DNA of 63,969 nucleotides, the filler included, from Asterionella formosa (taxonomy: Eukaryota): NCBI GenBank assembly GCA_002256025.1. It is 9 parts of 9 records of this genome, joined end to end, with 100 filler letters (N's around TTAATTAATTAA, not from the genome) between each part and the next. Parts side by side here need not be neighbours in the genome. Positions count along the whole stretch, not along the records: positions 21,583 to 28,662 come from NKIB01012531.1; 8 more parts are not named here. One strand, written 5' to 3'. The first letter of the stretch is position 1. Each line of letters starts with the position of its first letter. The translations under genes were made by a program, and so were the position numbers. This document shows positions 6,007-48,384 of this stretch, piece by piece. The notes beneath the pieces were generated by a model that was not told the DNA's origin, ran no database searches, and worked only from the letters and a program-made list of their open reading frames with translations.

Positions 6007-6212
6007 GGATTGCTGAAGGCAATACACGCCCGAGGTGGTCTCTTGCCTGCGAGTATACATGTGTTCGAGGCTGGGTGGCGCGAATAGGTTGACCGTACGA
6101 GTGGCGCCCCCGGCGCTGCGAGAAGGTCACCCTACGAGTGCCATCCCAGTCGAGTACACATGTATACGAGAAGGCAAGTAGCCGCCGAGAAGGGTATTGT
6201 TGAGGCAATTCC
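6007..6212 (+). ncRNA. Candidate structured RNA (or ssDNA): long rod-like hairpin with six periodic tandem G-A motifs
   Basis: The arms pair through GGCAATAC/GTATTGTT, GTGGT/GCCGC, TTGCCT/AGGCAA, TATACATGTGT/ACACATGTATA, GCTGGG/CCCAGT, TAGG/CCTA, TGACC/GGTCA and TGGCGCC/GGCGCTG. These helices are separated by CGAG-CGAG (or YGAR) appositions. The G-U pairs work only on the + strand. No family recognised. Confidence 0.5.
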
Positions 6213-6570
6213 CGCTCTAGCTATCGTCGCGTCATTCGCTTACCTACTGCCCACAAATTTAGCATAAATGTCAATTTTAGCCTACTATTGCCCATCATAT
6301 ATTTCCTATCTTCACCTCGAAAATTGCCAAAGGTCCGATATTGCCCATCATTAAAATATATTTTATATATTTCATATGTTCGCATTTTGGCAAGACAACA
6401 GACACCAATTGCCCCTCGGTTTTCCAGCCCTGGGATTGCCGAAATCGGCAAGGGGTCTACTTAAGGAAACTATGTTATATACTATACAGATTTCAATAAT
6501 TTATTTCTAGAATTCACCTCGTCTTTGTTCGTCTCCTGAAAAGTGGACTCCGGCAATTCACCTTTCACCA

Positions 6571-22365: not shown

Positions 22366-24928
22366 ATGCCCCCCACCATCGAAGAGCTCCCTTCCCGAGC
22401 TGCCTTGCGTCAAGCGCGGCGTGTATGTGTCAAGGCCGGAACGTCGGTCGTGACCAACGAAGACGGCCGGCCCTCGTTGACTCGCTTGGGGGCCATCACG
22501 GAACAAATCGCCGAGCTTTGTCGGGAGGACGTGCAGGTCATATTCGTGTCATCGGGTGCGGTCGGGATGGGCAAACGAGTCTTGCGCAAGCAGGGACGAA
22601 TGAATATGAGCTTTCTGGAGCTGCAAGCCGATACTCACAAATCGCTGGACGAAAGTTGCGACCACTCGACGCAGAAGGAAATGAGAGCGGCGACTGGCAC
22701 TACCTTTGGGAGTCTCGTGAATCTGCAAGCACCTGCTCGTCCACACACACAAGCGGAGAAGAAAAAATACTATGACAGCGCATGTGCCGCAGCTGGACAG
22801 TTTGAAATGATGAACCTATATTCAAGTCTCTTTGATCAAGTTGACATTTCCGCCAGTCAAATATTGGTCACACAACAGGATTTCGTGGACCCTCATCGAT
22901 TGAATAATCTGACTTATGCGGTGGACCGCTTGCTAGGACTCGGCATGGTACCCATTGTCAACGAAAATGACGCTGTCTCGGCAAATCAGGGATACACTGC
23001 TGAGGACGTATTCAGTGACAATGACAGTTTGGCAGCCTTGTGTGCGAGGCACTTCGGTGCAGAAGTTCTTTTGCTTTTGACAGATGTGGACGGTGTCTAC
23101 GACAAGTCGCCCAAGGATGATCCATCCGCAAAATTGTTATCATTTTATCCGAACACGGGAACGTCTGTCGTCATTGGAGAGAAGTCTGCACAGGGACGAG
23201 GAGGTATGGGGTCCAAGATTGATGCTGCAATGAGTGCGGTGGCACCTGGATCGAACTGTGGTGCCTGTGTCGTGGCCGCTGGATCAGATTTGAATTCGAT
23301 TCGGGCCGTTTTGGGACCCAAGCCGTTTCCGAGCAAAGGAACCATGTTTGTCACGGCTGGTAGTGAGTTAGAGCGACAAGCACAAATTGAATTGGATGCA
23401 GGGGTGAGTCATGATGTCATCGTATTGCGTATTTATTCAACTGAAAAGACACGCTGGAATTGGATATTCGTCGTTATATGGTAAAATCATGGACACTCAC
23501 CAGTTATATGTTGTCCTTCATTTAGGACTCCGGGAACATCTCCCAAGATGCCCGGTACAAGGCAACATCAGCCCGCAACGAAGCCAGAAAATTACAAGCA
23601 CTTTCCCACTCAGTGAGAAAGGATATTTTATATGCCATTTCAAATGCCTTGATTGAACGTCAAGAATTTTTACTAGAGGAAAATATGAAGGATGTTGTAG
23701 CTGCAGAAACCGACGGTATTTCCCTGTCTTTGCGAAGTCGACTAAAATTGAGTGCGGGGAAGTTAGACACTCTGGCGTCAGGCATTAAACAAATTGCTGA
23801 CATGCCTGATCCACTTGGAGTTGTTAAGAGTAAAAGGGAGCTTGCTAGTGGGTTGGAGTTGAGTTTGATTACTGTGCCGATCGGCGTCTTGATGATTATT
23901 TTCGAGTCTAGACCGGATAGTATGCCACAAATTGCTTCCTTAGCTATTGCTAGTGGCAATGGTTTGTTATTGAAAGGGGGAAAGGAAGCCATCCATTCCA
24001 ATGCTGCGATCCATAAGGTTATAGGAGATGCGATTGAAAGTGGGTCTGGTGGTCGAATTACAAGGGACATTATTGCCTTGATTGTCAGCCGCAGTGGGGT
24101 AAGTCAATTCTTCGGTTCTTGGATTGTTGCGTTCCCTACTGCACAAGGATCTCACATTGTGATTTACACAAAAACATATAGGTCGCTGACATGCTCGCGT
24201 TGGATGATGCCATTGACTTGGTCATCCCTCGTGGCTCTAACGCCTTGGTATCATATATCAAAGAAAACACTCGCATTCCTGTTCTTGGCCACGCTGATGG
24301 AGTATGCCATGTTTACTTGGACGAGTCTGCAGATACAGCGTCTGCAATCAAGATTGTTGTAGACTCCAAAACAGATTATCCTTCAGCGTGCAATGCAATG
24401 GAAACCTTGTTGCTTCATAAGGCGACGGTTGTCAACGGAGTAGCAAGTGCGGTGCTCATGGCCCTTCGAGCGGCACGCGTAAAGTGTTTGGGAGGTCCGA
24501 ATGCCATGAAAGTGGGTCTTACAGATGTCGCATCCGAGAAACTGAAGTTTGAATACGGAGACTTGACTTGTCTGGTGGAGGTTGTTGAGAACATGGACGA
24601 AGCCATTGATTGGATTCACAAGAATGGAAGTGGCCACACAGAAACTATTGTGTGCAGCGAGGACAGTCCAGCCGGTGAAGAATTTCTTCGTCGAGTCGAT
24701 ACTGCATGTGTTTTCAAGAACGCTTCGACACGATTCTCAGACGGATTTCGGTTTGGACTTGGAGCCGAAGTTGGTATATCGACCGGACGCATTCATGCTC
24801 GTGGGCCTGTGGGTGTCGAAGGTTTGCTAACAACCAAGTGGCAACTTCGGTCACAAGGCACAAGCTATGTAGCCGAGTTTGCTGGAGATACCCCGTTGAA
24901 GACGTACACCCACAAGGATCTTGTTTGA
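22366..24928 (+). CDS. P5CS: Delta-1-pyrroline-5-carboxylate synthase (glutamate 5-kinase plus gamma-glutamyl phosphate reductase); exons 22366-23403, 23526-24098, 24182-24928
   Basis: ProB motifs VKAGTS, VSSGAVG, PIVNENDAVS, FSDNDSLAA and GRGGMGSK. ProA motifs VPIGVLMIIFESRP, LLKGGKEA, SACNAMETLL, NASTRFSDG and GISTGRIHARGPVG. GT-AG introns at 23404-23525 and 24099-24181 restore the frame. Confidence 0.96.
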
Positions 24929-26519
24929 GATATAGACAAATAGTTGGGATACTCAGCCAAGAGTTCATCATATCTATCGAGCAGATATCTGCCTACACAA
25001 CAGTTAAATACGAGGAAATGTTGGTAGCCTCTAATCACAGTGACAACCATTACAAAATCTATTTCGTGCAGCTTTTTATCGCCCTTAAACCAACTGGTGA
25101 CGGCGGTGAATTCGCTTTTGTTGAAAATTCTGATCCCGTTTTTTGATTTGCATCCTGGTACATCTTCCTTCAGCGTTTCAAATCAGTTATCTCACAATCA
25201 TTCATTTCAAAAATAATTAGGTAAACGAGATAGACAACCACCTCTCCCCAAGAGATCATGACATTTTTAAGATGAACAGCACGCCTTCCTTACCACGAGA
25301 CTTGGCAAGCACTAGTCTTTTGAAGGCTACCTATTGCTGCTTCCAAGCTAGTATTATGGCTACGTTCTACCTATAGGTCGAAGTGGGAGGGGTTACGGTC
25401 CTCATTCTAGATTAGCTAACTTGTTTGAACAACCTTATAAATGAATGACACCAGCGGCTTCACCCTTTGTCGATTTATTGTGCATCATTGCGAAAGGGCG
25501 GTGTACAGGACAACTAGGTCTACCTAAATATCCCAAAATGACATTATTTCCATTTCCCAGTAGCGACTTTCCGAACTGTACCCTGATGACGCCAAGGAAC
25601 AAAATAGTAAAACATCCACTTCAACTACTGGTACATAGGTCAACAGAATACCATGATGATGGGACCTGTAACTAATGGTCGGCACCTGATGCTAGGTACC
25701 AGTGTATTCCTATGTATGTATTATCTAGCAACAGGGCAGGTGATCTGCTCCCACACCAGGTACCTGGTAACCAACTATGATTTGCACTGCCAAAGAATGA
25801 AAATGTTCCGTGCTGCGATTTTTTCTATAAATTGCTACATAATTACATAAATCACACAATCATACCTGGTATGCACCGTGCCAGGGACCAGGGGCGTGGT
25901 ACAAGGTACTGGTACCAGGTACCATACCGTTATTACAACTGATGACAGGCGATGTGCTGGTATATGCCGTAAAGGATTTGAAAGATCCAACCTCAAACGG
26001 AAACCACCAGCTAGGACTACCGGTAGTACATATTAAGTAGCCACCATTCATGTTGATGAAGATTCGCTCGCTGATTCTGACGCACCCACTTGCCTTTGCA
26101 GCTGCTGTCTACAGCATTATTGAAACATTCACTCCTAGGTATCACTATCGGGCCTTTATATTTCAGTTTATCTTAGTTTGGAGACCTGATTATATGTATA
26201 CGGGCAGACGGCGCAGGTGACTGAGAGTGCCAGGGAGCGTTCCTGAAGCGAACCCCAAATGAATAAAGAACAAGCAGAGGGCGAAAAACTTGAAATAAAA
26301 TCTTTCCTTAAAGGTCTTGAGCCCATGACGCCAAAGCGGGTGACTTGATGTTAAGACGAGCTTTGTTGCGTAGAATTCTACAGAAAATGTACCGGAAGCG
26401 GCATTCACAACGTCAGTAAGCACCTGGGAAAGAAAGTGGTCCACAGAAATCACAGGTACATACACGACCTCACAATCCATCAGCCCGATTGCTTCATGTT
26501 TTCTGATCTTCGTTGAACC

Positions 26520-27771
26520 ATGACCGCCGCCGTTGCTCCCCCCTCTCCGCTCCTTAACGAGACCCAAGGTGCTTCTGCGCTGGCACGTAAGCGTCGGCGT
26601 GAGATCCTCCAGACACTTCGGGCCACTTCCACCATTCCAGATGCCGCTGCTTCATCGGCTGCTGTCGTGCCTCCTCCTGCGCTTGTGTCTGCTACTGTTA
26701 TCGAAGTTCCTGCGGCCAAGAAGCCCAAGCTTTGTATCAGCGCAGATTCGTTTGACTCGCAGTCGAAGAAGCCACAGATGAAGTATGATCCGGAAGTGCC
26801 CATGACGAAGGATGAGGCTGCTGTTTGGAGAAGGGAGCAACGACGCAAACGCAATCGGGAGTCTGCCGCTGCATCTCGCCAGCGTCAACGTGACCGGATT
26901 GCTGAACTCGAAGATGAAATGGACGGATGGAAGGCCAAGTACGCTGATGTCTTGGCCAAAATTGCATCCCTCGAGCAACTCAAGGATACTGACGACCTCA
27001 TCGATTCTCTACCCCATATTACGGGTTCGCCAACCAGTGCGACCAGCTATATGAACACCAAGGCCCAACTGCATGAGCCGTGCTCTTGCTCAGACAAGCA
27101 CAACCCCGTCTCGGAAGACGAAGAAGAACAACAAGAATCTCCCCTAATAAAGATCTCTCGACCAGCATAGTCAAGATTTTTTCTACCTCTATTTCGATTG
27201 AGACGACCAAGTGGAAACATTAAAAATTGCATAGCGCAACAAACAAAGACTTTGTCCGCCGCGACACATGACCGGGTTTTACACAGCACTTGATTTTTCG
27301 AGTCTGTTCTAATGACAATATCACCTCCCGGGTGACATTGCAACCCCTCCTCCGACCCTGTCATGTTCACGTGCACTTTTTGTTGGTTGGAATGCTATGC
27401 AACTGATTTCCTCCAAGTCTACCAATCGTTGGGTTACTGTCGTTTCGACAGAGAGTAACCTTGACGCACACGTTGTGCGTTCTACTCTCTTTCGGCACAT
27501 GATATCGCCCTCTAAGATCACCATTCCAGCAGTGAAGATCACTGGTGAGATTATTGTTACTTCTACGTCTTCCGACAATTTGTTGCTTCCTATCGCCCTT
27601 TGCCCCGATCCTTGTGTCAGCCATGTTGCCGACGATGATGACGACGAGCACGTTCAGGAGCTCCGCCGCAAGAACACCTTTAAGAAGGCGACCTTACCCC
27701 TGCTTCTGTCCGACGAAGACGCGGAAGCTGAGTTTGACTCGTTCCTCCTTGACGCTGCTCAGTGGCTCTAA
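26520..27771 (+). CDS. bZIP transcription factor; unspliced ORF 26520-27170 (216 aa), predicted spliced form (exons 26520-27165 and 27530-27771) of 295 aa; candidate HAC1/XBP1-like
   Basis: Basic region RRKRNRESAAASRQRQR followed by the zipper IAELEDEMDGWKAKYADVLAKIASL. A downstream frame encodes an acidic/hydrophobic tail (..DEDAEAEFDSFLLDAAQWL*). The bZIP call is firm; the splice model is inferred. Confidence 0.85.
27149..27548 (+). promoter_or_regulatory. Putative IRE1-cleaved unconventional intron (27166-27529) with flanking stem-loops
   Basis: 5' hairpin AAAGAUCU-CUC-GAC[CAG^CAUA]GUC-A-AGAUUUU and 3' hairpin UCACCA-UUC[CAG^CAGU]GAA...UGGUGA. Joining after each CAG gives in-frame R-P-A-V-K. 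Confidence 0.65.
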
Positions 27772-29693
27772 TTTAAATGCAGAACCTATCTGTTCATTCC
27801 TTCACACTTTACCATTACTCCATATTCACTCTCACACGCAAAGCGCAACTGAATTCACTGCTACATTAGTTATAATTATGTTGTCTAGAACATTTTAAGT
27901 TATGGCACTTCCTTTTTATCTTGATTTAGGAAACTAGTGACATTCAATCAAGAGCTGCGTCTTTGGATTCACCCAGCGATTCATTGGTGCGGGTGGACTT
28001 GCATGTGATTTACTCTCAATGTTGTGAATCCCAACAGTACGGTGCATTCAAAGCATGATGTAGATAGTATTACAGTTCATCTAAAATCTTCGCCCGTCTC
28101 CTGTCGGTGCAAGTACCTTGGTACTCCCAGACACTAGACAATGGTAGATGATAGTACCTGGTACCGTAGGAAAGAGAAATCAGAATTGACCATTCAAAAA
28201 AATCATTGAGAGCAAAGCAAAGGCAGATAAAGATCGTGACGTTGCATCCCGAAGGTAACTGGACTGTCTCGTAAGTACTTAGTAACGACGTTTATGGATC
28301 ACGATAGTAAGAAAAGTAGGCAAAAAAAGAGTCTCAGTCGACGAGGGATTGAGAAAAAGTTGGTAGAGATGGAGAAACTACGGCATCATAGTGATGCAAA
28401 GACGGTTGGTCCATGACGTAATAATAGTCAACGCAATGCGAAGTGGTAGTCGACAGTGGACGTGGCAAGAAATGTTAATCGACAAGTAGCAAATATGCTG
28501 GTACCGTAGTCTAATCGGGCAACGATGGCATCATGGTGATGCCAGGAAAGCTACTTATGACGTATCTACGATGTTTACAAAAATCAAGTTTCCGAAAGTG
28601 ACGAAAAAAGTGAGAAAGTAATGCATCAATGCTTACCGAGGTATTCTCCAGAGGCAGACTTCNNNNNNNNNNNNNNNNNNNNNNNNNNNNNNNNNNNNNN
28701 NNNNNNTTAATTAATTAANNNNNNNNNNNNNNNNNNNNNNNNNNNNNNNNNNNNNNNNNNNNAGCAGTATGGATAAATCTACTACTAAAGAATACAATGT
28801 TAACATCGAAACTCTGATTTTGAAACTTTGATGCTAATGAATTGCTACTAGTAGTTATTGAAATGAACAAAGGAATTAATTTGGTTCAAGCAGTCAACCG
28901 AAGAATCAGGCCACGATTGTTGAATGTTGTCAACAATTTTCAACAGAACAAGTAGTACTGACACTACTAATAGCTAGATATTCATTTCATCTACATTCTA
29001 TCATTTGGTTGAGGTTGAAATGAAGTGATAGTGAGTCGTAATTTACATATTGTGTGTTTGCTATAGTTACAATATTTTTTGTCATCTGCTCCACCCTGCA
29101 ACGTATTATCAGTACTTTCTGTATTAGGTATGGATGGGTGTAGTCCGCCCGAGGTAGAAGTCGTTCTCGTGTGTACATTTTGTACCGACCATTTTTTAGG
29201 TGTCGGTTTGACCTAAAATTCAGGGTGTGAATAAGAAGTTTTGATTGATCATGGTTTTGCCTGTGGATTCCATCATAGCTTTCGGGCTGCAAACTGCTCG
29301 GGAGCAAAGAGGACGATTCATGCACTGTTGCTCCTTGTATTTCTTGCACTCCTGTGAATGTATTGGCTGCGCACTATTGCCTTTCCGGTCAGGGTATACC
29401 GGTACCAGGGTACCGTAGCTTATTACTCGTAGCTGCCGAAGTAGAAAATAATAACAGAATTTTAACTCATCATCATGGTGGTGTCAATCATTGGTGGATT
29501 ACATTTCTATTGCACGCTGCCGAGGAGCTTTCCCATATATATATTTATTCTTTTGCCACGACCCTAGACCTAAGATACATTATCTACTTTCAGTTAGTAG
29601 TACCCCTGGTACCAGGTACCTGGTACAGGTAACCAGGTAACCAGGTAACCAGGTAACCAATAGATAATGAGCAAGAGTTTTAGCTACCGGCAA

Positions 29694-29916
29694 GGCTGCG
29701 GCCCCACAGCTACACATTGCGAGGTCTGTTTTCCTCCGAAATATATCAATTTTTTTAAATGGAACTCTATCAATCTGGCACCGATTCCTATTTAATTCAA
29801 ATATTCTAATCGACACTCAAATCATGGGAATTCATAGAAGCAAACTCCATGTTCCCTCCTATTTTTACAACACTAGCAGTGTTTTCTACAAGCTGGGTTT
29901 AAGCTGGGCCACAACC
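29694..29916 (+). mobile_element. Short non-autonomous TIR element (GGYTGCGGCCC...GGGCCRCAACC), TTAA-flanked family A
   Basis: Ends and interior match the longer copy at 37841-39021. The right flank is TTAA, immediately followed by TTAA|GGTTCCTGGCATTT of family B (29925-~30163, homologous to ~44740-44985). Confidence 0.7.
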
Positions 29917-30164
29917 TTAATTAAGGTTCCTGGCATTTCAACTCTAGATTAGAGGTAGGGTTCTTAAAAAAATATTGAGTCAGAGTACTCAAACAAACAC
30001 TTCATATAAGTAACACATAAATGTACATCGCTAAACGGAGCTTTCACCAATATACACCCTTTCCATATACTTAGATACAGTCTTCTGACAAAGCCGGGGT
30101 ATATGTCAACGCTATATATCATCAGGATATAGGATCTGTCGAGAAAGTGCAGAAATGAACATCG

Positions 30165-30690
30165 GTATTGTGTGATAATTCCCGAGCGAGCTTTGGGGGA
30201 AAGTTCAGCACCATCAGGCACAATGCGGTCATAGACCAGGCCAGAGCGATAAGGGTTAAGGGCATGGCGACAATCCACCATATCAAACCGGTCAAGGATA
30301 TAGCGAAGGTAAGCCTCCTGGGATAAATGAACACTGAGGTGACCAGTGGAGGCATTGGGGTGCCAGGCAAAGTAGATATCAAGGAACCATGAGATGGGTC
30401 CCATCAAGTCAATGCGGAGACAAGCCGCCACAGCGGCCTCAAACCACCACTGCTCAACCTCATCACTAACAGAGAAGTAGGCAAAGTCGTCCACATATAT
30501 GCCCACATAAAGGGGAGGGGAACTGGGCATAGGATAACCAAAGAAAATGCAGGGTTCATAAGGGCACTGGGATAATCCCAGGGACAGGAGAATGTCCCGA
30601 AAACAGGTAAACCAATGGTGAGGTATCCGACGAAGATCATAGAGAATTTTATGGAGGGCGGCGCCAGTAGGTACCAGGCTTGGAAATGGG
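30165..30690 (-). pseudogene. Ty1/Copia reverse transcriptase fragment
   Basis: LHKILYDLRRIPHHW, PYEPCIF, YVGIYVDDFAYF and LSQEAY. The ORF runs on into unrelated repeat DNA. Confidence 0.85.
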
Positions 30691-31029
30691 GCAACCATGA
30701 GGGGGTTTAATGACAACCAGTTATGTGTCGGAAAATGCATAAACCGTCAGTCAGTAGTACCTTCAACCCTCCCTTGAATTCCTCATTGTGGTTTATTAAC
30801 GAACACGTCATCATCAACATTATGTTCTATATTGTTTTGATCTAAATGAAAGCATAGTTGAAGTACTTGATCCTGCACATGGAATGTGTTTGGAAGGTCA
30901 TTGGAAATGCATTCACGAGATTGCACGTGAATACCGAATTTGAACAGGGTCAAAAAATGTAGTCAAGTTGAAAATAGAGTTTGAAAAATGGAAATCAGGC
31001 AGCAGGAAGAAGGCTAAATCACTAAGGAT

Positions 31030-31473: not shown

Positions 31474-32610
31474 TCATGCATGCAAGTAAAACTGAACAGG
31501 GTTAGCTGTGTTAATATGATGAGGAACGTCTATGAATGAAAAATGCGTTAGGCAGAACACTTTTGCTTCATTAACGACTGCCCGAAAATTATCGCAGTAT
31601 AACGTATTATTTTTGGATTGATCATACAGAAAAACGCATTGATCAATCACTTTTTTGCGACTGATCAAAAACATGTATATGATAGATCACACAGATATCA
31701 TAAAATATCATACATATTGTCATCCTATCAAACAGATTTTTTTATTTTGCGTCAATAAGTGATTCGTCTCTATTATACATTGATTATATGGTTAAAGCAA
31801 TTTCTTTTATAAGGTGATTGGAATGATGGTTCTTTTATGTTATTTTCGATTCAAGTAGCAATCTGTATTTTATGATTGATACATTTACGTTCTTTGTTCC
31901 TATCCTTCAATCCAATAATATATATTTATATACAGATTAATATATATATATATATATATATAAAATTGCATTGCTTGTTTCGCATTTATGCGATCTGTTT
32001 ATCATATTGCTGGTTTTTTACATACATCGTTCACCAGCTGACAAATAGGAGGGTTCGTGATCACTAAAAGTCGCTAGGTAGGTTCATAAAGTCGGCAGTT
32101 ATGGCTGGCCCTTGGCACAATAACTTAACTAGACATCATCGTATGGTCAACCCATGGATTTGAACAAAACATGCATGCAAGAAAAACTGAACAGGGTTAG
32201 CTGTGTTAATATGATGAGGAACATCTATGAATGAAAAATGCGTTAGGCAGATCACTTTTGCTTCATTAACGACTGCCCGAAAATTATCGCAGTATAACGT
32301 ATTATTTTTGGATTGATCATACAGAAAAACGCATTGATCAATCACTTTTTTGCGACTGATCAAAAACATGTATATGATAGATCACACAGATATCATAAAA
32401 TATCATACATATTGTCATCCTATCAAACAGATTTTTTTATTTTGCGTCAATAAGTGATTCGTCTCTATTATACATTGATTATATGGTTAAAGCAATTTCT
32501 TTTATAAGGTGATTGGAATGATGGTTCTATTATGTTGTTTACGCTTCAAGTAGCAATCTGTATTTTATGATTGATACATTTGCCTTCTTTTTTCCTACCG
32601 TTCAATCCAA
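31474..32610. repeat. Local direct duplication (~440 bp, two copies)
   Basis: ~31474-31910 is near-identical to ~32171-32610. The two duplicated ORF-track peptides MFLISRKKVIDQ... reflect this. Confidence 0.9.
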
Positions 32611-36650: not shown

Positions 36651-37840
36651 ACATTGTTGTTTAGAACAAGCTTTACTAAATCCTTATCTAGAGACTTACA
36701 AATAACTCTGTACTTGCTCGGGGTTTGGCACTTCTTCGGTTCATTATACTAAGTTGTAAGATCCGGAGAAATGAAAATGTGGTATATTGTGATGGTCTCG
36801 AGAGCATTTCAGGATGCATCTATGTTGACAGTACAAAATCACTAAATTGCTATGGTGCGAACTACCGGTACCTGGTAGTGTGCATGTTTACATTGGGATG
36901 TCGCACACAATCGCGCCGTAATTATAATCCACCTCAAGAAAAGCGTTAAAGGAAGCTATATTAATTTGGAGTATAAAACATTATATAATATCGTATATGA
37001 ATATAAAATGTCGGCCCAGCTAAACGAGGTAATTTTATTTTCTTCCGATGTGCCTCACTCAACATTTTCGAAGTCGTTTATCTCACCAACTGGAACACAA
37101 CATCGATCGGGCGTTAAGCCATCCTAAATGTAGATGCGTGAAACAAATGACTTGTTCATAGTAAATATTGTCGTATTGCTAAAATTGAAAAAGTTTGTAG
37201 TACAAAATGTAAGATTACCCCGTTATAGTGGTCTAAGCAGTTCATAGTGGTCTTAAGCAGTTTTTGACTGGTACCAGGTACTTCAACAGGTCTTGTCGGA
37301 GTTACGGTAAAAGAGGGGTTTTACTATCAGGAAAACAGCGTTGAATTTCTCATTTACTGCGCAGCTTGCTCTGGTATACGGTGGAGCCTACGTACATTGC
37401 TTATCAGGTCGTAGGTAAAATACAGGACTTTGGTGTCAAATGTCCAGCGATGTGAAAGACAATTTTGACAGCAGTTCTTTGGCTTCTTATTCTATTTCAT
37501 GCCAGGATGGATACATACTATCATCAACCTCGCAAAATAAGTCGTGGTGTTCATCTTGATTCCTAGCGGCGATCACGATTGAGGGAAAACATCAACACTA
37601 CTGTTACTATCATGGTAGGTCCTGGTACCTGGTACCTGGTACCTGGTACCTGGTACCAAGTACCAGGTACCAGTGAAAAACTGTTAGCCACTGCTGTGGA
37701 GACTATTGAACTGTAAGCCACAGCTAAACGGAGTAAACGCACGGTTTGAACTCAGTTTGCAAGATACCCCCCCCTATACTTCATTGTCCTTGACCCCCCA
37801 ATGTATACTGCCGTGACTGAATTTGACTGATTTTACTTAA

Positions 37841-40870: not shown

Positions 40871-41427
40871 ACTCCACAAGTAAAAATTGAATGAGAAGCT
40901 CATGATTTATATAATTCATCAGAAGAATTCTCTGATGATGATACTGCCCTGGAAAAGTGTAAAACGTAAAGTAATAAAGGAGAAAAAAACGGTTTGGGGG
41001 GGGGGGGGGGAAAAATTTACAAAACCCCTTAGAAAAAAATATACACTGTAAGCCACCGCTATGCAACAACCTTAGTGACTTGGGAAAAATTATATCATAA
41101 TGGCTCGATACACTGAATCAAAACTGATAACTTAATACAAAAAAATACTTTAAGTCGGAAGATAGAGTAAAATAGCGGTGGCTTACAGATTTGAACTGGA
41201 CCAGTATTTGCACCAGACAGGAGGCTGAGGAAGGGATCCTTGTTACTTCACGGTTCCTGCTTTTGAAACCCCTAGGCAAAAATTTAAATATTACTTAGGG
41301 TTGCCGAAATTCCCTGGAACTAAGAACTTTTACATGCTAATTTTGGTTATCAATGATTCCATTTGAAATATTTAAATCAGTGCAAATTTGTGTGTACATA
41401 CATTAGATTCCTTCTCAAATGCCCTAA

Positions 41428-45451: not shown

Positions 45452-47739
45452 CCACTTAAAAACTGTAAGCCACCGCTACGGCGACATTTGAACTGTAAGC
45501 CACCGCTAAACGGAGTAAAGCACGGTTTGAACTTAATTTACAAGATACGCTATTTATTGTCACGAACGAGTTGTTTAGATTTATATAGCGAGTAAATACT
45601 TCCGTACTTGTATTGTTGCATTGTGTACATTGTTAATTAGGTATTATCGCCCAAAGGTTGCTGTCGACGTGAAATTGCGAAAATTGGATACATTCATGTT
45701 TACTCGATTGAGCAAGCATCACCTTTTATATACCTATACCTTAATATTCCTCCGCTAGAAAACTAATTTAGTATCCTCTAAAATTTATTTAATATGGCTA
45801 CGACGTCATTGCGCTTTCGCTCGTGCGCCATATTAAAGAGATAAATTCACTAATGGAAAACGTCAAATAGGAATTCCTGGCACGCCCGAATTATGAGTAA
45901 AAAAATTAAATGCAAACACACCAATCACCCATCACCCATCACAATACCAACATCATGACCTCGAAAGCGTCTCAACAAGGCAATGCCATGCCTCGAAAGA
46001 AATTGTCTCCTGAAGAGTTGGTCCTGGTCAGATTTGTCTCAACAATGTGATTAGGGAGCTAGAAGCTTGGCCTAGATCCGTTTGCTGCTTGGGAAGGAGA
46101 AGATGAAAGCATACATGGCAACAGCGGAAAGGGAAAATGATATCCACAAGGACCAGTCTGTGATGTGGAAGGGAAACAGTTGCCTACATACTGTTGTGTG
46201 TCGGAAAACAGCTTAATCACTGCAGAGCTTCTGGTTGGCATGCTAAAGCACATGGATGACTCTGGCATCTTTCCTCGAAACAACGGGCCCCCACCATTCC
46301 TAATACTTGATGGACATGGGTCTCGATTTGACATTTTGTTCCTTGAATACATAAATAACCCAGTACACAATCGGACAGTCTGTATTGGTGTTCCTTATGG
46401 AACAAGCTGCTGGCAGGTTGGAGACAGTGGTGAGCAAAACGTTTGTTTCAAAATGAACATCACAAAAGCAAAACGCAAATTGCTCACCTTAAAAGCAGAT
46501 CACAAGCACAAGCACAAGCTTACGATTAACAAGGTCAACATTGTTGGACTGGTGAATACGGCATGGGAAAATTCCTTTGCAAATATTGCCAAAACAAGAA
46601 CGCAATTTATGAACGAGGATGGTATCCCCTGAACTATAATGTCTTGCTTCACCCTGAAATTCAACTAACCCAATCACATCAGAACATCAATGCGCCCACA
46701 GAGACTGCCACTCTCCCTCCTGATGAGTTAAACCTCCAAACTGGCTTTGCTGGAACAATTGTTGGAAGAATTAACCAGTTTTGCAAACGCGAGGATAAGC
46801 GAAATGGAATCGACCAGGAGGCCCAAGCTGGAAAGAGAAAGGAGACAACGGACTCACACATTGAGGAACACAAGAAGAGGATAACAGCAGTACTACTGGC
46901 CTCTGCACAAAACTTTGCCCTTGGGCCAAATATTCTTGGTGCTACACTGGAACGGAAGGGAATTTCAGTCATTGTAATAAGTACAAAAGAAACAAAAAGG
47001 CAACAAGAATTCAATACACTTTGCGGAAAAGTACTTACATTGAAGGAACAGAACAAAACAAAAGAACAGATGTCTGTGCCAGAATTGAAATTAATGGTGC
47101 GTTGGTACAAACGATCAGGTGATTTGCCGGTTCCACAAACAAGGCAAGCTCTGATTACAAGATTCGACAACACCAATCACCGTGTTGACCAGCAGCCGCC
47201 ATTCCCTCTCCATACACCTCCTATTGCTGTGGTTGTCGTTACTGCACCTCCTCCTGTTGCTATTCCCTCTCCTTCTACAACTGCTACTGCCGATCCACCA
47301 TTCCGTTATGAAGTTTGAGACTTCGCAAGCAAGTAATTGGATGCAAAGAAGCTCAAGATTAATGTTATGCATCAGAAGAATTCTCCAATGATGATGCTGC
47401 CCTGCAAAAGTGTAAAACGTAAAGTAATAAGAAAATATTTTTTGTAGTATTAATGGAGTAATAATAAGAAATAAACACGGTTTGGGGGGAAAATATATAC
47501 ATGTTCACAAAGAAAAATATGCGTTGTAAACAATGCTATGCAATAATCTTAGTGACTTTGGAAAAATTATTTCTTCATGGCTAGTTTCACTGAATCAAAA
47601 CTGATTCCTTAATAGTATAGCAGAGAGCATTGTCTAACACAAGCTTTGTACTTGCGTCAAGTTTTGATCGTTGAATTACATAAATATTTTTCGTCGAAAG
47701 ATAGGGGTAAAATAACGGTGGCTTAGAGTTTTTATGTGG
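45452..47739 (+). mobile_element. pogo-like DNA transposon with both TIRs and TA target-site duplication; deleted transposase pseudogene at ~45950-47318
   Basis: TA|CCACTTAAAAACTGTAAGCCACCG ... CGGTGGCTTAGAGTTTTTATGTGG|TA. ORF pieces carry FLILDGHGSRF, WQVGD, ERGWYPLNYNVLLHPEI and ELKLMVRWYKRSGDLPVP. Confidence 0.88.
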
Positions 47740-48384
47740 TACCTGGTACCTGGTAGTACCAGGTACAATAGATGTACAGCATCAGTTTTGTAGTTTTGTG
47801 CACAGCCATGGGTACATATTTATAGGTACCAGGTACCAGGTACTCTGCACCAATTATAATGGTCTGCCTACATAGACACTGGTATTACACGGCTGCACCG
47901 GGTTTCATCAATTTTTATTTAAAGAATTATTATTGACAAGGTTATGGATAAGACATCAAATGCGAGAAATTTATATACATCGTCGTACACAATATACAAT
48001 GAGAACTCCAAACTTGGGATAATCCGTGCTTTTCACTTTTTTTCCGATCGCCACTTTTGACCTAAATTAACGAAAGATCGACATCCAATCGGTTGAGAAC
48101 TAATAGAATGACTCCATCCGGTATATGCACAAGATCCATTCTGGAGCTTAAAAAATAGAAATGAATGATTTTTCTTAATAAAACGTGTTTTTTATAACGT
48201 CAGTGAGTCAATTCAGTTTGATATTTTTTCCAGTGGGTCAATGCAGTTTTTAACTGGTACCAGTACCTACTAGTCGATTGTGAGGGAGACACGATGCAGC
48301 ATGGTTATGATCAAGGTGACTTGGTCGACTGAATTCATGTGAACAAGCAAAGAAGCAAACATGCAATTCTTGTATTTCACGGTA

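Follow-up and report, generated by a model that had tools for sequence, protein, structure and literature searches.

IRE1 finds its one substrate in different ways: yeast uses an RNA element, whereas in animals and plants substrate delivery depends on a hydrophobic nascent chain, XBP1u and bZIP60u both using a hydrophobic tail for targeting. The XBP1 intron is short (26 nt) and acts by frameshift, and Hooks and Griffiths-Jones 2011 is reportedly the key survey of HAC1 and XBP1 intron structures. The HAC1 mRNA of Saccharomyces cerevisiae has a 252-nt Ire1/Trl1 intron and a 3' bipartite element, the 3'BE (PMC6627864, PMC4279078, PMC13703316); the latter, on a stem-loop of the 3' UTR, brings the mRNA to Ire1 foci (PMC4279078, PMC13703316). 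The Arabidopsis bZIP60 intron is 23 nt long (PMC12781897), and for stramenopiles ERN1/IRE1 appears as a gene label in the legend of a figure on a brown alga (PMC6742357). A literature search, partly of excerpts and with most subscription journals outside its scope, turned up no IRE1 substrate reported from diatoms or any other stramenopile group, and no paper on the inner intron element reported here.

The DNA analysed (hereafter, the window) is a 63,969-nt stretch of the diatom Asterionella formosa, in which positions 27166 to 27529 had been predicted to be an unconventional intron with a nested multi-helix fold. Our preferred reading, to which we assign a probability of about 0.6, is that a diatom mRNA of the HAC1/XBP1/bZIP60 type has this segment as its long intron, with a rod-shaped fold that displays a protein-binding targeting element. 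The locus would supply a substrate together with a short RNA element that covaries and can be probed exactly by mutation; some diatoms kept in the laboratory are transformable. Its spliced form would be a ready RT-PCR marker of ER stress in diatom cultures and field metatranscriptomes.

The bZIP gene and its excised intron

The message is made up of the following parts:
26520..27170, + strand: open reading frame of the unspliced message, encoding a 216-aa bZIP protein that ends in ...ISRPA, with its stop (27168-27170) just within the intron
27166..27529, + strand: non-spliceosomal intron of 364 nt, CA...AG, corresponding to the RNA contig joint 27161>27526
27530..27771, + strand: exon 2, with 79 extra residues and an acidic end (...EFDSFLLDAAQWL), bringing the spliced protein to 295 aa

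A match to Pfam bZIP_1 above cut-off at residues 103-153 (E 1.1e-08) identifies the product as a bZIP transcription factor, and the named members among its 802 homologues are diatoms, pennate as well as centric. Among the 120 homologues listed of these 802, 105 stop at or soon after an SRxA motif, 11 extend into the acidic end and 4 do neither; the 105 gene models end at ...ISRPA without the conserved C-terminus because of the unspliced intron. Long and short isoforms with an identical N-terminal part were present in all three clusters checked, two of them with culture transcriptomes, and in-silico splicing led to a WL-stop end in 42 of 46 introns (three run off the contig and one differs). 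At the level of sequence, splicing does away with an early stop and supplies a C-terminus that is acidic and conserved. The family profile had no match among PDB sequences at E 0.01, and the 191 candidate stretches from a prokaryotic genome collection included no relatives. Upstream of the gene, an ACGTCA hexamer at window positions 26410-26415, which we take to be CRE-like, lies about 70 nt before the start of the X1 RNA contig (26483) and is a possible candidate site for self-regulation.

Excision was observed in RNA contigs of two runs from two studies (X4 and X6), whose joint 27161>27526 skips exactly 364 nt, with 6 letters, the direct repeat CCAGCA, fitting either side. The joint occurred in two of four runs, X1 and X8 yielding the unspliced form only, in contigs that drop rare forms. 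The spliced share differs widely among runs, the joined contig having a depth of 50.1 vs 32.2 for the intron contig in X4, and of 71.9 vs 7.8 in X6. None of the seven equivalent cut registers has GT-AG, GC-AG or AT-AC ends on either strand; with excision in RNA contigs, this bears out the prediction of an unconventional intron. With the register 27166-27529, each cut falls at a G^C, within the loop CAG^CAUA at the 5' end and CAG^CAGU at the 3' end, the exact bond being ambiguous within the repeat. An in-frame stop follows the 5' cut by 2 nt here, and by 2-95 nt in 46/46 introns, so the intron is 3' UTR in the unspliced message, as had also been proposed.

One metagenome scan yielded 115 relatives, and 80 loci were analysed, with P0004-P0006 (75-77% protein relatives) outside the 80. 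A strict pattern classed 36 of these loci as unspliced, 14 as spliced, 1 as incomplete, 20 as without a site and 9 as unparsed; looser patterns added 11 unspliced loci, and a more distant group contributed 3 spliced and 2 unspliced. The same junction was found in the 14 naturally spliced contigs and in the 3 from the more distant group; 6 spliced contigs with this junction belong to the AUG^ class, in which the repeat is 3 nt. The 14 spliced contigs are all shorter than 1.6 kb and the 8 loci longer than 4 kb with a site are all unspliced, as expected if long contigs are genomic. Altogether 46 distinct introns, including that of the window, measure 217-787 nt, plus one of 69 nt, and fall into all three length classes modulo 3. 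In X4, the contig of a relative (record 6) matches 27151-27174 and 27524-27548 with only 55 other letters between them, which implies a putative unspliced intron of about 70 nt in a short-intron paralogue or relative.

The cut sites lie within these features:
27149..27181, + strand: 5' splice hairpin, in which a GAC/GUC stem (27160-62/27170-72) closes the 7-nt loop CAG^CAUA with P 0.97; cut placed between 27165 and 27166
27149-56/27174-81, + strand: outer stem of the 5' splice hairpin, from the pair-probability fold
27524..27536, + strand: 3' splice site, where UUC/GAA can close the 7-nt loop CAG^CAGU; cut placed between 27529 and 27530
27122..27141, + strand: 5' strand of a predicted exon-exon helix with its partner at 27547-27564 (pair probabilities 0.6-0.99)

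Seven-nucleotide NNG^CNNN loops with complementary stems are present at both ends in 38/40 loci. The closing pair of the 5' loop has P > 0.5 in 32/39 loci, and at least three closing pairs are possible in 38/40; this loop departs from C-N-G, with AAG or AUG, in 18/46, and has U after the cut in 3. The 3' loop is CAG^CAGU in 42/46, with CCG in 3 and CGG in 1, and its stem is complementary in 38/40 but is not predicted to form (P 0.006 here, >0.5 in 0/39). The exon-exon helix is predicted to close a multiloop containing both splice hairpins, and at least five expected exon-exon pairs occur in 39/39 loci, a count without a control. Of 40 folds, nearly all allow the exon ends to pair after splicing, through GAUCU/AGAUC or CUUUAC/GUGAAG, at -2.7 to -6.2 kcal/mol. 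By analogy with described substrates, cleavage of the intron is very probably of the IRE1 type, and the intron would work like the HAC1/XBP1 switch.

HAC1 is alike in having a long non-spliceosomal intron that starts with C after G, contains a stop and gives a new C-terminus once spliced, and in a branch-point look-alike near the 3' intron end (PMC6627864); in its untranslated sequence, moreover, a long stem-loop bears a bipartite element that is short and conserved (PMC4279078, PMC13703316). Unlike the yeast 3'BE, which is located in the 3' UTR downstream of exon 2, the diatom element is inside the intron and leaves with it. Repeated helix-plus-NCUAA modules in the intron set the diatom loci further apart, as does intron-5'UTR pairing, which was not found in them. 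By its location the diatom element falls outside the 3'BE class, and it belongs to no Rfam family.

Metazoan XBP1, the substrate of IRE1alpha, is alike in an exon-exon stem that, like S1, closes the splice-hairpin multiloop. XBP1 has a bifurcated stem-loop and an RNA zipper; 7-nt loops are shared, the diatom 3' loop being close to C(C/U)G^CAGC, and the pairing of the diatom exon ends after cleavage resembles ES1 of the zipper (PMC4687415). In contrast to XBP1, the diatom introns are 217-787 nt long, occur in all length classes modulo 3, act by an early stop and tolerate AAG and AUG in the 5' loop. Plant bZIP60 and Chlamydomonas bZIP1 are likewise unconventionally spliced bZIP mRNAs of photosynthetic eukaryotes (PMC13545648, PMC3216516). 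bZIP60 has a short intron and a membrane anchor in the unspliced protein, whereas the diatoms have a long structured intron and no hydrophobic tail: a hydrophobic stretch after the bZIP is missing in 39/40 unspliced proteins, the exception being locus L057 (2.05).

Fold of the intron and its conservation

Beyond the splice hairpins, the fold of the window's intron comprises:
27195..27428, + strand: long rod (scaffold) of about 60 bp that encloses the apical junction; its shape is conserved and its sequence is not
27313..27342, + strand: second junction hairpin, right after the CUAA linker (P 0.6-1.0); sequence variable among relatives
27431..27510, + strand: 3' hairpin with the base GGGU/GCCC, lower stem P 0.87-1.0, and ACGCACA/UGUGCGU at its tip

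The helix strings named in the original prediction are all where it placed them, and the check that it had proposed, a folding z-score against dinucleotide shuffles, gave -109.4 vs -79.1 +/- 5.2 kcal/mol (z = -5.84; 0/100 as stable); the reverse strand of the 364-nt segment has z = -3.27. Pair probabilities, computed in the context 27120-27580, are mostly 0.8-1.0 and 0.61 at the lowest for CGAUUG/CAAUCG, GGAAA/UUUCC, UUGCAUAGC/GCUAUGCAA, CAACAAACAAAGA/UUUUUGUUGGUUG, ACAUGAC/GUCAUGU and ACGCACA/UGUGCGU. The string AGAC/GUCU is present as named but is not the preferred helix (P about 0.25), the register GAC(27205-07)/GUC being favoured at 0.72. The proposed local hairpin GGUUACU/AGUAACC (27432-27460) was rejected: it has P = 0.0 because its bases belong to the longer hairpin 27431-27510, and a variant at 27459 (C>G, 3/4 runs) breaks its pairing. 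The terminal CC of the 3' hairpin is paired upstream in 30/36 folded introns, a hairpin after the linker appears in the local folds of most relatives, as judged by eye, and a degenerate CAUUAA motif occupies an internal loop of the rod at 27218-27223.

In a scan of every second 364-nt tile of the + strand, with 10 shuffles each, the intron scored lowest of 82 tiles. Three other tiles also fell below -5.5, two of them rich in GGTACC palindromes and one with a long inverted repeat; stability alone would therefore not settle the question of the fold. Rfam 15, with its ribozyme, riboswitch, group I/II intron and HAC1/XBP1 models, gave no match at gathering score in the window, and its best match for 27100-27600 (E = 3.3, a CRISPR repeat) is a chance one.

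The body of the window's intron has no alignable orthologue among the relatives, only the last 21 nt matching, and two other tests were therefore used, based on alignable groups of relatives and on strain variants. Two alignable groups (5 + 6 sequences) share a consensus fold of the same layout, with two-sided changes in 18/126 and 12/64 pairs, counts that take the sequences as they stand with relatedness uncorrected. Covariation of the window's own rod rests on the strain variants, of which 8/10 sites fall at unpaired positions though 66% of the intron is paired (binomial about 0.004). The X8 haplotype retains -109.0 kcal/mol, a value equalled by 10/200 random variant sets; one variant (27378) breaks a predicted G-U pair, and another extends the 3' splice stem. 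Across relatives, z was below -3 in 36/38 introns vs 0/38 upstream and 0/35 downstream stretches, after removal of 6 near-duplicates and of the longest and shortest intron, with 8-10 shuffles each and flanks that are mostly coding.

An energy like that of shuffles and a lack of compensatory changes had been named as what would count against the fold; the energy is instead far below that of shuffles (z = -5.84), and the relatives' rods carry compensatory changes. The fold is almost certainly real and selected. Its conserved layout consists of the 5' splice hairpin, a long rod topped by a multi-way junction, the 3' hairpin, CUAA and the 3' splice site.

The apical element and NCUAA modules

The original prediction listed the variable helices of the scaffold and overlooked the sequence-conserved parts, 27283-27313 and 27507-27515, which contribute to two features:
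27283..27313, + strand: conserved apical element, a helix ACAG-(bulged C)-AC / GU-CUGU with a variable hairpin cap, followed by single-stranded UCUAAU
27511..27519, + strand: UCUAA linker, second helix-plus-NCUAA module, and GAUC, which can pair with GAUC of exon 2 (27537-40)

The rod ends in a three-way junction closed by 27274-78/27354-58, of which the apical element is one arm; the element has the consensus ACAG(C)AY...RUCUGU-NCUAA. An unbiased 7-mer count in intron interiors returned ACAGCAY and RUCUGUYCUAA as the top strings. The element was found in 44/46 introns, 41 by pattern and 3 by hand, those three each with a two-sided change. Across 39 introns without duplicates, pair 6 reads CG in 19, UA in 15, UG in 3 and unpaired in 2, and the rare changes in pairs 1, 3, 4 and 5 of the helix are all two-sided. 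An alignment of the introns with shorter caps (26/39) showed two-sided change in 8/9 pairs and 92% of cells paired, vs 77% when shuffled and 27-42% when slid; the motif pattern had fixed some of the letters that were subsequently counted. The helix is part of the whole-intron minimum-free-energy fold in 34/34, beneath 22-97 enclosing pairs, and its CUAA is unpaired in 37/37.

The motif has a single match in the window and 0 in 100 shuffles. A covariance model run over 243,749 bases gave 49 matches with E no higher than 1, a single one from each source and all on the sense strand; 23 are beyond the training set, none is in a spliced contig and none elsewhere in the window, and the weak matches L072 and L068 are located in introns of the distant group. 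What is new here is a covarying apical element at the rod tip that is confined to unspliced loci. A likeness to iron-responsive elements and hammerheads was dropped, since the hairpin capping the bulged helix varies freely in length and there is no Rfam match.

The element is missing from two introns and is therefore not needed in every case. The 258-nt intron L057:750-1007 is a plain rod (z -5.9) without it, and the hydrophobic stretch of the L057 protein may be an alternative targeting route. The 69-nt intron L042:1090-1158 has the exact CAG^CAGU loop at both ends, a small hairpin and then UCUAAU, and a different exon 2 end; it gave 0 matches to the covariance model.

CCNYUAA occurs 55 times in 40 introns vs 6.9 +/- 2.2, the window's copies lying at 27509-27515 and, in degenerate form, at 27218-27223. 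CC-N-(C/U/G)UAA lies 12-28 nt before the 3' cut in 37/40 introns, behind the 3' hairpin, CCNYUAA is found on the 5' strand of the rod in 12/40, and UAAGAUC in 31/36. Each intron holds two or three NCUAA modules, which are unpaired at 97/126 sites vs a 21% background.

Role of the fold and competing explanations

Two of the roles offered with the original prediction found no support. The fold gave no gain over shuffled interiors in bringing the two cleavage sites together, the cut-to-cut graph distance having a median of 32 in 36 introns vs 30.5 in 108 interior shuffles, and the ends of the intron alone being further apart than in shuffles (46 vs 21). Translation control through a yeast-type block by 5'UTR pairing fared no better, with duplex z < -2 in 1/29 loci, a median of 0.02 and -0.45 for this gene, from start codons that were chosen by rule and are wrong in some cases. 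A measure of insulation gave the 5' loop as closed in 30/36 minimum-free-energy folds vs 63/108 with a shuffled interior.

A further proposed role, that of a targeting element, is the one favoured, by inference: a sequence-fixed bulge and single-stranded repeats at the rod tip, the precedent of the yeast 3'BE and the lack of a hydrophobic tail all argue for targeting or gating, and the apical element is, with modest confidence, a protein-binding site that would act on splicing in one of these two ways. Under ER stress, IRE1 would cut the message and an RNA ligase would join it, as the likeness of the loops to those of XBP1 and HAC1 suggests. The rod would serve as a scaffold that stops some 330 nt from pairing wrongly with either splice hairpin, and would display the apical element and the NCUAA repeats to an RNA-binding protein, which would deliver the unspliced message to IRE1 on the ER or hold it there. 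The apical element would then do the job of the yeast HAC1 3'BE, such an element being needed because the unspliced protein is without a hydrophobic tail of the XBP1u/bZIP60u kind. An intronic signal of this kind would tag unspliced molecules alone, as splicing takes it away. The full proposal, held with a little less than even confidence, is a diatom switch of the unfolded protein response built on a structured intron with a self-erasing address label: a new conserved RNA family, made up of a bulged-C helix and repeated NCUAA modules borne on a rod whose sequence is free, that would be read by a protein, either bringing only unspliced messages to IRE1 or gating the 3' splice hairpin, predicted to stay closed pending some remodelling. 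If true, this would be an independent, RNA-based form of IRE1 substrate selection, outside the fungi and placed in the intron.

The main rival, unlikely but closely related, is that the intron is of the same IRE1 type and that the inner element controls the fate of the unspliced message, not its delivery. STAR/SF1-type proteins bind (A)CUAA repeats and are a lead for a repressor or decay factor that could silence or store the message through the NCUAA modules; alternatively, the rod could fold the long 3' UTR back, allowing escape from nonsense-mediated decay. The stop 2-95 nt past the 5' cut in every intron, which makes the intron 3' UTR, and the two or three largely unpaired NCUAA modules both agree with such control, and since no 5'UTR pairing was found that could provide a yeast-type block, the truncated bZIP may have to be restrained in some other way. 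However, the evidence is the same for targeting, and both can coexist; a pure compaction role would not require a sequence-fixed bulged helix.

It is improbable that the intron leaves by another route, served by the fold, be it the spliceosome with a non-canonical donor or another endonuclease. The 3' end CUAAG...UUCCAG does resemble a branch point and acceptor, with a CUAA that precedes the 3' cut by about 17-26 nt in 37/40 and an AG end in 42/46, and the 3' IRE1 loop is not predicted to form, the role of IRE1 being deduced from likeness. Set against this resemblance are the lack of any GT-AG, GC-AG or AT-AC register, a 3' end of CCG, CGG or CUG in 6 relatives (seen unspliced), and the complementary stems round 7-nt NNG^CNNN loops at both ends in 38/40. 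A dispensable branch-point look-alike is also described for yeast HAC1 (PMC6627864).

Also quite improbable is a neutral or passive spacer with the sole task of joining the cut sites in space. Such a spacer would agree with a rod whose sequence and length vary freely (217-787 nt) and with the existence of short introns (L042, and the X4 contig implying about 70 nt), but shuffling the interior leaves the cuts no further apart than they are in the real introns, and a sequence-fixed, covarying element stands at the far rod tip in 44/46. Most improbable of all, despite a 6-nt direct repeat CCAGCA at the joint, a very stable fold and excision evidence drawn entirely from cDNA assemblies, is that the spliced form arose when reverse transcriptase jumped over a stable hairpin from one short direct repeat to the other, with the structure as an ordinary 3' UTR element, because the repeat shrinks to 2-3 nt in 18/46 relatives and exon 2, reachable only after the skip (42/46), is conserved as protein; the 6 spliced contigs of the AUG^ class also share the junction, and the skip is the major form in X6 while absent in X1 and X8.

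Apart from the bZIP locus, the window contains two further coding features:
22366-24928, + strand: gene lying upstream and split over several ORF pieces, in which an amino-acid kinase domain (PF00696) is present; the piece 24191-24925 has no Pfam match
29964-30740, - strand: Copia-type reverse transcriptase fragment (PF07727)

The later pieces of the upstream gene read, in our judgement, like glutamyl-phosphate reductase, and the gene is presumably P5CS. The window has 39 copies of GGTACC where about 9 would be expected, and these form clusters of GGTACCT/GGTACCA units in tandem with strong folding (for example 25700-26030, 29350-29713, 37358-37721 and 47550-47913) that look like a dispersed palindromic micro-repeat. 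The low z of tiles 40998-41361 (z -5.8) and 6054-6417 (z -4.9) comes from long imperfect inverted repeats; the former shares sequence with the tile at 47550, the two possibly representing a small transposon family. Window positions 28663-28762 are N runs around the TTAATTAATTAA spacer, and a local duplication is suggested by two short ORFs, 31474-31674 and 32136-32369, that are nearly identical.
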